A stretch of DNA of 64,000 bases from the UHGV virus genome UHGV-1351569. One strand, given 5' to 3'. The notes under the pieces are model-generated. The model did no database searches, was not told where the DNA came from, and saw nothing but the letters and a program-made list of their open reading frames with translations. The stretch is from a virus. The number at the start of each line of letters is the position of its first letter. Position 1 is the stretch's first letter. Positions 2,003 through 49,530 of the stretch are shown piece after piece. Both the position numbers and the translations under genes were made by a program.

Positions 2003-2548
2003 ATGAGAAAAGCACTACTCGCTGGTCTATTGGCCATTTCAATGATGGCACATAGCTCCGAGCATACTTTCAGTAATGTCCAACTCGATAACATGCGTTA
2101 CGCGTATCAATTCGGGGAACAATTTTCTAAGGATGGAAAATATAAAACACACAAAAATATCCACAAGAGCGGATTAGGTCATATAATGGCTGCTATTTTA
2201 TGGCAAGAAAGCTCTGGCGGAGTTAATTTAAAATCTAAACCAAAGCATCACGCTTACGGAATGTTCCAAAATTATTTGCCTACTATGCGAGCAAGAGTTA
2301 AGGAACTTGGTTATAATATGACCGACGCTGAAATAAAAAGAATGTTGAATAAACGATCCAATTCAGCTTCCTGGGCGTACATTGAACTTTCTTATTGGTT
2401 AAATATACATAAGGGCGATATAAGAAAAGCAATATCCTCTTATAATTCGGGATGGAATGTTAAAGCAGGTTCTAAATATGCTTCTGAAGTCCTAGAAAAG
2501 GCTAATTACCTTAAAAATAATAAACTTTTGGAAATAGTAAATGACTAA
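2003..2548 (+). CDS. secreted protein with N-terminal signal peptide (T4 vs.1 position)
   Basis: 181 aa; hydrophobic N-terminus MRKALLAGLLAISMMAHS. Confidence 0.6.
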   Translation: MRKALLAGLLAISMMAHSSEHTFSNVQLDNMRYAYQFGEQFSKDGKYKTHKNIHKSGLGHIMAAILWQESSGGVNLKSKPKHHAYGMFQNYLPTMRARVKELGYNMTDAEIKRMLNKRSNSASWAYIELSYWLNIHKGDIRKAISSYNSGWNVKAGSKYASEVLEKANYLKNNKLLEIVND

Positions 2549-2888
2549 AATTTTGGTTTTATGTATAGGATTAATTTCATTTTCTGCTTCTGCGTCAGCA
2601 GATACATCATATACTGAAATTAGAGAATATGTAAACCGCACTGCGGCAGATTATTGTGGGAAAAATAAAGCATGCCAAGCTGAATTTGCACAGAAATTAA
2701 TATATGCATATAAAGACGGAGAAAGAGATAAATCAAGCAGATACAAAAACGATACATTATTAAAACGATATGCTAAAAAGTGGAATACTTTAGAATGTTC
2801 AGTTGCGGAGGAGAAAGATAAAGCCGCTTGTCATTCAATGGTTGACCGTTTGGTAGATTCTTATAATCGAGGATTGAGTACTAGATGA
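2541..2888 (+). CDS. small exported protein (T4 vs position)
   Basis: 115 aa; N-terminal signal-like segment LVLCIGLISFSASASA; overlapping start/stop. Confidence 0.55.
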   Translation: MTKILVLCIGLISFSASASADTSYTEIREYVNRTAADYCGKNKACQAEFAQKLIYAYKDGERDKSSRYKNDTLLKRYAKKWNTLECSVAEEKDKAACHSMVDRLVDSYNRGLSTR

Positions 2889-3364
2889 TTGTAAAATATA
2901 TCAAGGGCGATATTGTCGCCCTATTTCTTCAAGGTAATATTATTGCGCACGGGTGTAACTGTTTTCATACAATGGGCAGTGGTGTAGCTGGTCAATTAGC
3001 AAGAGCCTATCCCAAAATTTTAGAAATAGATAAGACCACAACTGAATATGGTTCGCGTGAAAAACTCGGTGATATGTCTATTGTTTTTAAACATAAACCT
3101 AATGGTTTTGGCATATGTTATAACTTGTATACGCAATACGAACCAGGTCCTAATCTTGATTATGGTGCTTTAGTAAACTGCATGATAGAATTAAATCTAC
3201 AGGCAGAAACCCTTTTGTTTAAACCAGTAATTTACATTCCACGCATAGGTTGTGGTATTGCTGGCGGTGATTGGGATAAGGTTTCTAAATTAATCGACAT
3301 GTTTACTCCTGATATTGATTTAATAGTGGTGGATTATGAAAGTACATTACCCACATCCGTTTGA
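2885..3364 (+). CDS. macro-domain-like protein (putative ADP-ribose binding/processing)
   Basis: N-terminal GDIVALF...GNIIAHGCNCF...MGSGVAGQLARAYP resembles the macro-domain GDIT...NAAN...GGGV signature. Confidence 0.55.
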   Translation: MIVKYIKGDIVALFLQGNIIAHGCNCFHTMGSGVAGQLARAYPKILEIDKTTTEYGSREKLGDMSIVFKHKPNGFGICYNLYTQYEPGPNLDYGALVNCMIELNLQAETLLFKPVIYIPRIGCGIAGGDWDKVSKLIDMFTPDIDLIVVDYESTLPTSV

Positions 3365-3548
3365 TCCTAAAAACAAAGCAGAAATTATTCGTCAATGGGA
3401 ACGCATTTGCCGTACTAAATGCCCAATTAATAGTTCACATGATGTAAATAAAGACTATATTGGAACATTCGTTGAATATACCTTTATTGATAAGAAAGGT
3501 CGTAAACAGCACGTAGAAGAATATTGCTTAAAGGTTACATGGTTATGA
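3336..3548 (+). CDS. hypothetical protein, 70 aa
   Basis: ORF from track. Confidence 0.45.
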   Translation: MKVHYPHPFDPKNKAEIIRQWERICRTKCPINSSHDVNKDYIGTFVEYTFIDKKGRKQHVEEYCLKVTWL

Positions 3549-3751
3549 GCCAAACTAGTATTCTTAAAAATGCCCATTGTGAAAAGTGTAAATGGCCTGT
3601 TGTTTTTGCTTTATGTAATGATGAAATGGCTTGTGATTTCGATTATTGGTGCTATTGTTCGAACAAAGGATGTAGCAATCATAAAGGTGAAGGGTTTTAC
3701 TCGGGATTTTACCCTTATCCTGATTTCGTTAAAGAAGGTGAACCAAAATGA
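3545..3751 (+). CDS. Cys-rich small protein (putative metal-binding)
   Basis: ATG at 3545 overlaps previous stop (ATGA); HCEKCKW...CNDEMACDFDYWCYCSNKGCSNH. Confidence 0.5.
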   Translation: MSQTSILKNAHCEKCKWPVVFALCNDEMACDFDYWCYCSNKGCSNHKGEGFYSGFYPYPDFVKEGEPK

Positions 3752-3924
3752 ATGATGATTTAAAATATCAATTATTACGTGAACTTGATGTTTTGATTGA
3801 ACTTTCTGCACAAAAAGGATTTATAATTGGATCGGGTCAAAAAGACCCCAACGGTCATTCAATCGTATCGGTTATGAATCAGAAACGAGTCATTTTAAAA
3901 CTTTTGGGGATTGACATACTGTGA
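3748..3924 (+). CDS. hypothetical small protein, 58 aa (below track size cutoff)
   Basis: Hand-translated; ATG overlaps upstream stop (aATGA); stop overlaps next start. Confidence 0.4.
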   Translation: MNDDLKYQLLRELDVLIELSAQKGFIIGSGQKDPNGHSIVSVMNQKRVILKLLGIDIL

Positions 3925-4106
3925 GCCTAAGCAAAGAACAAAAAGATAAATTGTTTGAGCTTATCCATGAACTTCTAGATGAGCATACAGAAGCAAACAC
4001 CTTTTATGATGAATACGGCCCGCTATCTCCCGAACAGCAGGAAGAATTTGCTGATCGGTTTGATAAGAAAGAAAATGAATTAATAGCTTATGTGAATACG
4101 CTTTAA
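3921..4106 (+). CDS. hypothetical protein, 61 aa
   Basis: ORF from track (GTG start), acidic helical. Confidence 0.45.
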   Translation: MSLSKEQKDKLFELIHELLDEHTEANTFYDEYGPLSPEQQEEFADRFDKKENELIAYVNTL

Positions 4107-4115
4107 GAAGGTGAT

Positions 4116-4697
4116 ATGGCGAGTTTAATTTTTACTTATGCAGCAATGAATGCTGGAAAATCTGCTTCTCTTTTGACTGCTGCGCATAATTATAAAGAAC
4201 GCGGAATGGGTGTATTAGTTCTTAAGCCTGCTATTGATACTCGCGATTCTGTCTGTGAAGTCGTTTCTCGCATCGGAATTAAACAGGAAGCGAATATTAT
4301 TACGGATGATATGGATATTTTCGAGTTCTATAAATGGGCTGAAGCACAAAAAGATATTCATTGTGTATTTGTAGATGAAGCTCAGTTTTTAAAAACTGAA
4401 CAGGTGCATCAATTAAGCCGAATTGTTGATACATATAATGTTCCTGTTATGGCTTATGGACTAAGGACTGATTTCGCTGGAAAATTATTTGAAGGTTCTA
4501 AAGAACTTTTGGCGATTGCAGATAAACTTATTGAACTAAAGGCAGTTTGTCATTGTGGTAAAAAAGCTATTATGACAGCTCGATTAATGGAAGATGGAAC
4601 ACCAGTTAAAGAAGGCAATCAAATCTGTATTGGTGATGAAATTTATGTTTCTTTGTGTAGAAAACATTGGAATGAATTAACTAAAAAGCTCGGTTAG
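4116..4697 (+). CDS. tk: thymidine kinase
   Basis: 193 aa; P-loop AAMNAGKS; C-terminal CHCGKKA...CxxH zinc motif typical of type II TK; matches recalled T4 Tk. Confidence 0.95.
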   Translation: MASLIFTYAAMNAGKSASLLTAAHNYKERGMGVLVLKPAIDTRDSVCEVVSRIGIKQEANIITDDMDIFEFYKWAEAQKDIHCVFVDEAQFLKTEQVHQLSRIVDTYNVPVMAYGLRTDFAGKLFEGSKELLAIADKLIELKAVCHCGKKAIMTARLMEDGTPVKEGNQICIGDEIYVSLCRKHWNELTKKLG

Positions 4698-5925: not shown

Positions 5926-6128
5926 TGATTAGTATTGAACAAGCAGATAAAATTAAAGAATTGGTAGCTTTAATTCGCAAAGCAGACGAGGAACTTAGTG
6001 ACTTTGCTTGGTTTTCGGCAGGCATTGCAAATAAAGGCGCTGAAGAACTTGAAGCTAAAGTTGATAATGCTGTAGAAGCTTTAGATATGTTTCTTGATGA
6101 AATTATCGATCATAATACGAGAGTTTAA
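5925..6128 (+). CDS. hypothetical protein, 67 aa
   Basis: taATG overlap with upstream stop. Confidence 0.5.
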   Translation: MISIEQADKIKELVALIRKADEELSDFAWFSAGIANKGAEELEAKVDNAVEALDMFLDEIIDHNTRV

Positions 6129-6130
6129 GT

Positions 6131-6325
6131 ATGCTAACACGTGAACAGTTTGAAAAAATCATTAAATTAGCACGTGATATTGAAATAGATTCATACCAAT
6201 TGGCAGTTGAGCATTGTGAAGGATATTCATACGATGGTATAGAAGCAGCTAAAAAGGATTTGGATAAATCCAAAGCTAAGTTAGTTCAATATCTTGAAAT
6301 GATTAGGTGGAATAATGAAAACTGA
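6131..6325 (+). CDS. hypothetical protein, 64 aa
   Basis: ORF from track. Confidence 0.5.
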   Translation: MLTREQFEKIIKLARDIEIDSYQLAVEHCEGYSYDGIEAAKKDLDKSKAKLVQYLEMIRWNNEN

Positions 6326-6488
6326 AAAGCAGATGTTTTTAATGAAGCTAATTGAAGAATATGCTAATGCAGTTTCTGACTATGAGTATTCTTCTAGGGA
6401 AAGAGGTACAGCTTTCGCAAAGGAAGAAATGAAAATCATGGTTGATGCTCACACAAAGCTTCAGAATTTTATTGAAAACGTCATTTAA
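6315..6488 (+). CDS. hypothetical small protein, 57 aa (below track cutoff)
   Basis: Hand-translated; overlaps end of previous ORF. Confidence 0.35.
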   Translation: MKTEKQMFLMKLIEEYANAVSDYEYSSRERGTAFAKEEMKIMVDAHTKLQNFIENVI

Positions 6489-48307: not shown

Positions 48308-48931
48308 ATGATTATTAATCCTGCAGATGTTGAACAGTTATCTATAAAAGCTGAAAGCGTTGATTTTCAATATGATATGTATAAAAAAGTCTGTGAAAAA
48401 TTTACTGACTTTGAGCAGTCTGTTCTTTGGCAATGTATGGAAGCCAAAAAGAATGAAGCTCTCCATCGGCAGTTGAATAAAATCGTTAAAAAGCATTTAA
48501 CTAAATCACCTTATCAGCTATATCGTGGTATATCAAAATCGACAAAAGAACTCATTAAAGATTTACAAGTTGGAGAAGTGTTTTCAACGAACAGAGTAGA
48601 TTCATTTACTACTAGTTTGCATACAGCGTGTTCTTTTTCTTATGCTGAATATTTCACTGAAATAGTACTTCGCTTAAAAACTGATAAAGCTTTTAATTAC
48701 TCTGACCATATCAGCGATATTATACTTTCTTCTCCTAATACTGAGTTTAAGTATACATATGAAGATACTGATGGATTAGATTCAGAGCGTACTGATAACT
48801 TAATGATGATTGTACGTGAACAAGAATGGATGATTCCAATTGGAAAGTATAAAATAACTTCTATTTCAAAAGAAAAATTACACGATTCATTTGGAACATT
48901 TAAAGTGTATGATATTGAGGTAGTTGAATGA
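48308..48931 (+). CDS. modB: ADP-ribosyltransferase ModB
   Basis: 207 aa; R-S-E ART signature (LYRG, STS, QEWMIP); size and order as T4. Confidence 0.75.
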   Translation: MIINPADVEQLSIKAESVDFQYDMYKKVCEKFTDFEQSVLWQCMEAKKNEALHRQLNKIVKKHLTKSPYQLYRGISKSTKELIKDLQVGEVFSTNRVDSFTTSLHTACSFSYAEYFTEIVLRLKTDKAFNYSDHISDIILSSPNTEFKYTYEDTDGLDSERTDNLMMIVREQEWMIPIGKYKITSISKEKLHDSFGTFKVYDIEVVE

Positions 48932-49530
48932 AATATTCAGCAATGCAATTAAAAGATTTTAAAATCAAATCAATGGATGCATCGGTGCGTGCTTCTATTC
49001 GTGAAGAATTACTTTCTGAAGGATTTAATTTATCTGAAATTGAACTTTTAATTCATTGTATTACTAATAAGCCAGACGACCACTCTTGGTTAAATGAAAT
49101 AATCAAATCTCGTTTGGTTCCAAACGATAAACCTCTTTGGAGAGGTGTTCCAGTTGAGACTAAGCAGGTGTTAAATCAAGGAATTGATATTATTACATTT
49201 GATAAAGTAGTATCAGCTTCATATGATAAAAATATAGCTCTACATTTTGCTTCTGGTTTAGAGTATAACACACAAGTTATTTTTGAATTCAAAGCTCCTA
49301 TGGTATTTAATTTCCAGGAGTATGCTATAAAAGCTCTACGTTGTAAAGAATATAGTCCGAGTTTTAAGTTTCCGGATAGCCATCGCTATCGTAATATGGA
49401 ATTAGTTTCAGATGAACAAGAAGTAATGATACCAGCTGGAAGTGTATTTAGAATTGCAGATAGATATGAGTATAAAAAGTATTCAACATACACTATCTAT
49501 ACTCTTGATTTTGAAGGATTTAATCTATAA
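48928..49530 (+). CDS. modA: ADP-ribosyltransferase ModA
   Basis: 200 aa; LWRG, SASY, QEVMIP; paralogous to preceding gene. Confidence 0.75.
   Translation: MKYSAMQLKDFKIKSMDASVRASIREELLSEGFNLSEIELLIHCITNKPDDHSWLNEIIKSRLVPNDKPLWRGVPVETKQVLNQGIDIITFDKVVSASYDKNIALHFASGLEYNTQVIFEFKAPMVFNFQEYAIKALRCKEYSPSFKFPDSHRYRNMELVSDEQEVMIPAGSVFRIADRYEYKKYSTYTIYTLDFEGFNL

Follow-up and report, generated by a model that had tools for sequence, protein, structure and literature searches.

A divergent tk.4/adfM allele of a T4-like phage encodes a macrodomain protein with a predicted glutamine-type active site

The UHGV virus genome UHGV-1351569, analyzed as one strand of 64,000 nucleotides (the window), encodes a small protein at positions 2885..3364 of the plus strand. 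An earlier sequence-only reading of this open reading frame (ORF) observed that its N-terminal region resembles the ADP-ribose-binding signature of macro domains, that the same phage encodes the ADP-ribosyltransferases ModA and ModB, and that ADP-ribosylation is used by host defense systems. The question raised by this locus is whether the protein reverses or reads ADP-ribosylation, and on whose marks it acts. The ORF proved to be an ortholog of tk.4 (adfM) of phage T4, and its product is likely to be an orphan, SCO6735-like, Gln-dependent glycohydrolase that clears DarT2-made thymidine-ADP-ribose from phage DNA.

A tk.4 ortholog with a macrodomain fold

The ORF encodes a single-domain protein of 159 aa (159 codons; 17.6 kDa; isoelectric point, pI, 5.3). 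Residues 22-136 matched positions 2-117 of the 118-position Pfam Macro profile (PF01661) with E = 2.4e-8 and 34.4 bits, above the curated cut-off of 22, and the macro match extends across the whole protein, not the N-terminal part alone. PHROG 335, which carries the label "phosphatase," was matched at 1.5e-71. Sequence matches in the PDB were BT1257 (2AFC/2FG1, ~1e-10), yeast Poa1p, SCO6735 (5E3B), the Mycobacterium tuberculosis DarG macrodomain (5M3I), and human TARG1. An AlphaFold2 model built from 102 family sequences had a mean predicted local distance difference test (pLDDT) score of 94.0 and a predicted template-modelling (pTM) score of 0.89. When this model was compared with the PDB by Foldseek, the top matches were all macrodomains of the TARG1/ALC1-like class (probability 1.00; template-modelling [TM] scores ~0.7-0.8), including TARG1, Poa1p, BT1257, and the DarG macrodomains of T. 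aquaticus and M. tuberculosis. A non-macro fold had been named in advance as the finding that would overturn the macro-domain resemblance; as modeled, the ORF product is a macrodomain with the three-layer alpha/beta/alpha fold.

The region surrounding the ORF shares 97.5% identity with genomes of Tequatrovirus, vB_EcoM-G28 among them, and the window belongs to a Tequatrovirus, a T4-like phage. The gene order in the window and in these close genomes is regB, vs.1, vs, the ORF, tk.3, three small ORFs, tk, rI.1, and rI. On comparison with T4, G28, T2, T6, RB69, and IME08, the ORF was found between vs and tk.3/tk.2, upstream of tk and on the same strand; the Mosigvirus RB69 and the Dhakavirus IME08 both retain the order vs/tk.4/tk.3. 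The T4 gene that occupies this place is tk.4, annotated in RefSeq with the note "phosphatase; contains A1pp phosphatase motif." The window protein aligns to T4 Tk.4 over its full length without gaps (57% identity over 155 aa; E = 1e-69). Its placement between vs and tk.3 identifies the ORF, on sequence grounds, as the tk.4 ortholog. To describe the ORF as lying beside tk is loose: tk.3 and three small ORFs intervene.

The window protein is also 95-99% identical to the products of hundreds of deposited phage genes, and its exact allele is already called "Macro domain protein" in several GenBank records. That tk.4 orthologs contain a macro (A1pp) domain was published in 2006 (PMC1524935). Thus, the macro-domain observation is correct but not new, as tk.4/adfM has existing annotation and, in T4, an assigned function.

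Predicted active site and DarTG2 resistance

Conservation was assessed in the alignment of the 102 family sequences, to which statements on invariance refer. Invariant residues are H22, G23, N25, C26, G33, A35, D49, N80, Y82, Q84, P119, and W130; G8, G122, G124, A126, G127, and G128 are nearly invariant, with A126 and G127 conserved in at least 90% of members. The patterns used for the binding loops, N-x(5-6)-G-x-G-[VI]-A and P-x-[IL]-G-x-G together with an adenine-contacting Asp, recovered D9, N25, G31-S-G33-V-A35, and P119-R-I-G122-C-G124 as conserved candidate ADP-ribose-contacting residues, the second feature on which the sequence-only reading had been made to depend. G8 and D9 lie in a "KGD" motif (G8-D9 at 2906..2911, plus strand) that is invariant in the window protein, T4, T2, and T6 Tk.4, BT1257, SCO6735, TARG1, and PhiKZ AdfM, and D9 presumably contacts the adenine of ADP-ribose. 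The putative substrate-binding loop 1, H22-G-C-N25-C-F-H-T-M-G-S-G33-V-A35 (2948..2989, plus strand), was delineated by profile alignments and by invariance in the family and in bacterial relatives; its N25 corresponds to SCO6735 Asn27 and PhiKZ AdfM Asn23, and H22 to SCO6735 His24. The putative phosphate-binding loop 2, P119-R-I-G122-C-G124-I-A126-G-G128 (3239..3268, plus strand), was delineated by the family and profile alignments. Within it, G122 and G124 correspond to SCO6735 Gly126 and Gly128, and A126 occupies the position of the TARG1 catalytic Asp125.

Gln84 (codon CAA, 3134..3136, plus strand), within the motif LYTQ, is invariant in the 102 family members and in 80 bacterial relatives, which are the best 80 of at least 475 loci found in a scan of one genome per species and were examined in detail. 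It aligns opposite TARG1 Lys84, Lys80 of both DarG macrodomains (FPTK), SCO6735 Gln85, and the equivalent BT1257 Gln. This placement was obtained with the 102-sequence family profile and with hhalign, two approaches that agree and that fit the invariance of Q84. Pairwise phmmer and a small MAFFT alignment misplace the segment, putting BT1257 "NMIGQ" into an insertion, and were not relied on; the profile alignment to PhiKZ gp104 was shifted by two residues, and hhalign and the strong DarG match were used instead. The structure comparison yielded scores rather than a residue-level alignment. The predicted active site is of the Gln type found in SCO6735 and BT1257, not of the Lys type found in DarG and TARG1.

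Although SCO6735 has neither the Lys nor the Asp, it clears thymidine-ADP-ribose made by DarT from DNA more rapidly than DarG or TARG1 does (PMC9411070). Its Q85A mutant is inactive, N27S is nearly inactive, and G128E has reduced activity (PMC9411070); the equivalents in the window protein, Q84, N25, and G124, are all conserved. The N23A mutation likewise reduces the activity of PhiKZ AdfM (PMC13309987). SCO6735 of Streptomyces coelicolor is an orphan hydrolase that counters DarT and is not a cognate antitoxin (PMC9411070). Together with BT1257 of Bacteroides, the best PDB sequence match, it resembles the window protein in being a stand-alone, orphan macrodomain of ~155 aa and of the TARG1/ALC1-like class, with Gln at the catalytic-lysine position (Q84 to Q85), a supporting Asn (N25 to N27), the His, the loop glycines, and Ala at the TARG1 Asp125 position; both the Gln and the Asn are invariant in the family. 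Identity to these proteins is ~25%, however, and the "mobile loop" that follows the Gln is 5-6 residues shorter in the window protein. The extension of this loop to five residues more than in TARG1 and DarG is absent, and TARG1 aligns to the Tk.4 family profile without a gap.

Other macrodomains of the class differ at the catalytic position. TARG1 (OARD1), which also removes thymidine-ADP-ribose from DNA (PMC9411070), is the best structural match (TM-scores 0.72 and 0.80) and has an equally short loop after the catalytic position, but its catalytic dyad Lys84/Asp125 is replaced by Gln84/Ala126. The DarG macrodomain (PDB 5M31, 5M3E, and 5M3I) shares the fold class and a weak but significant sequence similarity, and removal of DarT2 thymidine marks by DarG is the same function that we propose for the window protein. 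Unlike the window protein, with Gln84 in LYTQ, DarG has Lys80 in FPTK, a C-terminal DarT-binding domain, and an adjacent darT; the 159-aa window protein has neither the domain nor the neighbor, being flanked by vs and tk.3.

The function of Tk.4 has been addressed genetically in T4. When a T4 transposon library was challenged with a DarTG2-expressing host, tk.4 was the single significant hit, and a clean tk.4 knockout rendered T4 sensitive to DarTG2; the gene was named adfM (bioRxiv 10.1101/2025.11.20.689424, a November 2025 preprint). These findings agree with the earlier suggestion that the macro domain could reverse ADP-ribosylation imposed by host defense, although the requirement for tk.4 in DarTG2 resistance has been demonstrated for the T4 allele only. 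T2 and T4 without adfN, and T4 also without adfA, stay resistant to DarTG2 (PMC11825919). Another factor is therefore expected, and tk.4 fits. Cells infected with T2 were found to contain Tk.4 protein (bioRxiv 10.64898/2026.06.19.733364). Further, TARG1, DarG, and SCO6735, all of the same macrodomain class, hydrolyze thymidine-ADP-ribose on DNA (PMC9411070), and PhiKZ gp104, a different phage macrodomain, removes DarT2 marks from DNA in vitro (PMC13309987).

Protection against DarTG2 by a stand-alone "orphan antitoxin" macrodomain is, jointly with the hydrolase activity, a likely part of the best explanation for this ORF. In the proposed mechanism, host DarT2 would transfer ADP-ribose from nicotinamide adenine dinucleotide (NAD+) to thymidines in single-stranded DNA, at TNTC motifs, and block replication. 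The phage macrodomain would use Asp9 and its pair of conserved glycine-rich loops to hold the ADP-ribose, and the thymidine-ribose bond would be hydrolyzed, restoring the DNA. In this step, invariant Gln84, held by invariant Asn25, may position the distal ribose for water-mediated hydrolysis. The window protein would thus act on thymidine-ADP-ribose in DNA, and its allele would be expected to behave like that of T4.

Several points weigh against this assignment. The T4 preprint says of enzymatic removal of ADP-ribose from DNA only that it "seems likely" (bioRxiv 10.1101/2025.11.20.689424), and the literature contains no reported biochemical assay for any Tk.4-type protein. The allele studied genetically is that of T4, to which the window allele is only 57% identical. 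The equivalog cut-off of the NCBIfam DarG model (NF048014) was missed, with 28.1 bits against 250; the PADLOC DarG model was matched at E = 3.4e-7 in its macro part only. The DNA-positioning lysines of SCO6735 have no counterpart, as Ser32 stands opposite K34 and K89 maps to the shortened loop, and the electropositive surface of SCO6735 is also missing: the window protein is acidic (pI 5.3), whereas SCO6735 (pI 9.5) and BT1257 (pI 8.4) are basic. Acidity is a weak and nondecisive objection because PhiKZ AdfM/gp104 is also acidic (pI 5.05) yet active. Finally, ALC1 also aligns a Gln at the Gln84 position, and the ALC1 macrodomain binds ADP-ribose but is not known to hydrolyze it. Gln alone is therefore no proof of activity.

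In another explanation, the protein would counter DarT2 chiefly through binding, either to the toxin or to its product, and would be a stoichiometric inhibitor or an ADP-ribose reader rather than a hydrolase. The catalytically dead mutants SCO6735 Q85A, DarG K80A, and TARG1 K84A remain inhibitors of DarT in vitro (PMC9411070), AdfA and AdfB counter DarT through binding, and the window protein has neither the catalytic Lys nor the catalytic Asp of TARG1. The surface outside the active site also diverges strongly between the window and T4 alleles (5/24 residues identical at positions 132-155), as would fit toxin-specific binding. However, the SCO6735 catalytic residues (Gln, Asn, the loop glycines, and His) are invariant in the 102 members and in the 80 bacterial relatives, near which a single DarT2 query detected no DarT gene. 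Such conservation is expected of an enzyme and not of a toxin-specific binder, and the window protein is also without the C-terminal DarT-binding domain of DarG. Neutralization mainly by binding is considered unlikely.

A role in small-molecule metabolism is suggested by existing annotations. The protein could be an ADP-ribose-1''-phosphate phosphatase or an O-acetyl-ADP-ribose deacetylase that clears NAD-derived metabolites during infection, in keeping with the RefSeq A1pp note on T4 tk.4, the PHROG 335 label, and the name "O-acetyl-ADP-ribose deacetylase" given to relatives by JGI. Yeast Poa1p is a significant match in sequence (E = 1.4e-9 with the single sequence and 1.6e-14 with the family profile) as well as in structure, and it has an H-x-C-N-C motif in common with the window protein. 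These labels were nonetheless carried over from the domain name and not from assays on the Tk.4 family, and many macrodomains are weakly active on such small molecules in vitro without a biological role there. The sole known phenotype of T4 tk.4, the single significant hit of the screen, is specific to DarTG2. A primary small-molecule function is thus very unlikely.

The presence of ModA and ModB in the window had been taken to imply a connection between the macrodomain and the phage's own ADP-ribosylation. Both genes are present on the plus strand, modB at 48308..48931 and modA at 48928..49530, as judged by 98.4% DNA identity to phage records annotated accordingly; a Pfam search of the two ORFs gave no match. 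Under this explanation, the macrodomain would reverse or read the ADP-ribosylation or RNAylation of host proteins by Alt, ModA, and ModB, and it is true that TARG1 and SCO6735 also strip ADP-ribose from proteins at Glu and Asp. The implied link found no support. The mod genes are ~45 kb away, without genomic linkage to tk.4, and the macrodomain was also detected in many phage groups, which may or may not encode Mod enzymes, and, in bacteria, in unrelated gene contexts. It is established knowledge that arginine is the residue modified by Alt, ModA, and ModB, and that this linkage is normally undone by enzymes of the ARH/DraG type and not by TARG1-class macrodomains. The T4 preprint reports no such phenotype for tk.4 (bioRxiv 10.1101/2025.11.20.689424). 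Action on the phage's own marks is therefore regarded as extremely improbable.

Alleles, relatives, and neighboring genes

Sliding DNA identity to T4 delimited a divergent allele cassette with sharp breakpoints at 2933..3340 (plus strand). Identity is ~100% through vs and the first 48 nt of tk.4 (up to 2932), falls to 40-70% within the cassette, and recovers to 92-97% in tk.3. The window and T4 genes have the same locus (vs/tk.4/tk.3), length class, and fold and all family-invariant residues in common, whereas the central 400 bp is only 40-70% identical between flanks of ~99%. Synonymous sites are saturated (proportion of synonymous differences, pS, 0.67-0.73), and the ratio of nonsynonymous to synonymous substitution (dN/dS) between the two alleles is ~0.15-0.24. 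Positive selection between the alleles was rejected on the same values. Saturation and a low dN/dS indicate, as far as sequence comparison can tell, that the window and T4 tk.4 are old alleles held under purifying selection and moved by recombination, not products of recent rapid evolution. The window-type cassette is present in 339 phage records; beyond Tequatrovirus, the nearest copies belong to phages of the Dhakavirus type, for example JS98 and IME08. The allele of T2 and T6 is of the T4 type.

Exchange of the cassette between otherwise nearly identical genomes admits a further explanation, that the window allele has a different specificity, for other DarT2 variants or for other base marks such as uracil-ADP-ribose in RNA, and may not protect against the E. 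coli DarTG2 that was tested. Active and inactive alleles are known for both AdfA and AdfB, and the phosphate-binding loops of the two tk.4 alleles differ, with IGCGIAGGDW in the window and IGAGIGKGNW in T4. It is, however, the window loop that represents the family consensus; T4 tk.4 (5926-6390 of the T4 comparison locus) is the outlier, with Ala, Gly, Lys, and Asn substitutions. The window allele retains every invariant residue, and selection is purifying. A shift in specificity of this kind is quite unlikely, and hydrolysis of DarT2 marks remains the preferred explanation for the window allele as well.

Relatives of the protein were detected in 2,768 of 50,697 phage records from many phage groups, among them Felixounavirus-like wV8 and Pseudomonas, Vibrio, and Acinetobacter phages. 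The bacterial loci, numbering at least 475, encode relatives at 34-44% identity in Rhodobacterales, Desulfobacterales, Verrucomicrobia, and other groups, with Ruegeria and Desulfobacter among the carriers. His22, Asn25, and Gln84 are kept in all 80 of the relatives examined in detail, most of which have a loop after the Gln that is 3 residues longer. No DarT2 was detectable within 4 kb at these 80 loci (best tblastn E = 2.2) with a single Pseudomonas aeruginosa DarT2 query, which very distant DarT relatives could escape. Clustering of neighboring ORFs revealed no gene common to more than 7 of the 80 loci, and those that were shared are housekeeping genes. The idea that the bacterial relatives are cognate antitoxins encoded beside darT was not supported. 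Because no DarT2 neighbor was detected and no neighboring gene is widely shared at the 80 loci, the bacterial family members are taken to be stand-alone macrodomains like SCO6735 and not the antitoxin half of a toxin-antitoxin pair.

Within the window, tk.4 is tightly packed between its neighbors. Its ATG overlaps the stop codon of vs (2541..2888, plus strand; ~99% identity to T4) as ATGA at 2885-2888. A scan for sigma-70 promoters returned 15 sites, compared with 23.7 in shuffled sequences, and nothing convincing directly upstream of tk.4, which is probably cotranscribed with vs. At its other end, tk.4 overlaps tk.3 (3336..3548, plus strand) by 29 nt, compared with 4 nt in T4; the overlap in IME08 is similar (32 nt). 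The window protein ends in ...VDYESTLPTSV and that of T4 in ...VDWEPLL, making the former 4 aa longer. A terminator-like hairpin at 2904-2922, in codons 7-13 of tk.4, consists of a perfect 8-bp palindrome, AGGGCGAT-ATT-GTCGCCCT, followed by a T-rich run; it lies just before the recombination breakpoint and is identical in T4. It was rejected as a feature, since its stability does not exceed that of shuffled sequence (z = -0.87), and it is probably due to chance.

Further from tk.4, the interval 3532-4100 between tk.3 and tk (4116..4697) could not be aligned with T4 tk.2/tk.1 and contains three small ORFs instead of two. The first of these (3524/3545..3751) encodes a Cys-rich, zinc-finger-like product with CEKCK...C..C.C motifs, and the other two are at 3748..3924 and 3921..4106. 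On the upstream side, vs.1 (2003-2548) encodes an SLT lytic transglycosylase domain. The N terminus of Vs, the "valyl-tRNA synthetase modifier," resembles a signal peptide (MTKILVLCIGLISFSASASA), as does that of Vs.1 (MRKALLAGLLAISMMAHS). An exported Vs would be an odd fit with a cytoplasmic role at a tRNA synthetase. In T4, vs was the most depleted gene in minimal medium (HIDEN-SEQ preprint).

Significance for T-even phages

DarTG is a common anti-phage defense, against which T-even phages layer the countermeasures AdfA, AdfN, and Tk.4/AdfM. AdfN (T4 gp30.3) is, like the function proposed for Tk.4, an orphan antitoxin-like hydrolase of T-even phages that undoes DarT marks on DNA, but it has an unrelated NADAR fold, acts on the guanosine marks made by DarT1, and has no effect on DarTG2 (PMC11825919).

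PhiKZ gp104, which is also called AdfM, is likewise a single phage macrodomain that counters DarTG2 and in which the conserved Asn is important, and it is imported into the phage nucleus (PMC13309987). Unlike Tk.4, it is of the DarG type, with the FPTK lysine and a match to M. tuberculosis DarG at E = 9e-25. Its similarity to Tk.4 is remote (BLASTP E = 0.001 over 33 aa; hhalign probability 95.6%), and the two are not orthologous. As judged from these comparisons, the name AdfM has been given independently to two nonorthologous macrodomain subtypes, a SCO6735-type in T4 Tk.4 and a DarG-type in PhiKZ gp104. Beyond the literature examined, the predicted T4-type AdfM site is the Gln type of SCO6735 and not the Lys type of DarG and PhiKZ AdfM.

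A broader proposal, which we put forward as speculative and rather unlikely, is that T-even Tk.4, together with its orphan relatives in bacteria, makes up a clade of its own, apart from DarG and PhiKZ AdfM, whose members are short-loop, lysine-independent (Gln84/Asn25) DNA de-ADP-ribosylases, and that the two ancient, swapped alleles differ in the DarT2 variants or other base-ADP-ribosylating toxins that they neutralize, possibly through an added toxin-binding activity. If this were true, allele type would predict phage host range. Recognition of the non-T4 adfM allele is useful for annotation, as many records still carry it as a "hypothetical protein" or "phosphatase," and the identity of the adfM allele may help to predict the host range of therapeutic T4-like phages.

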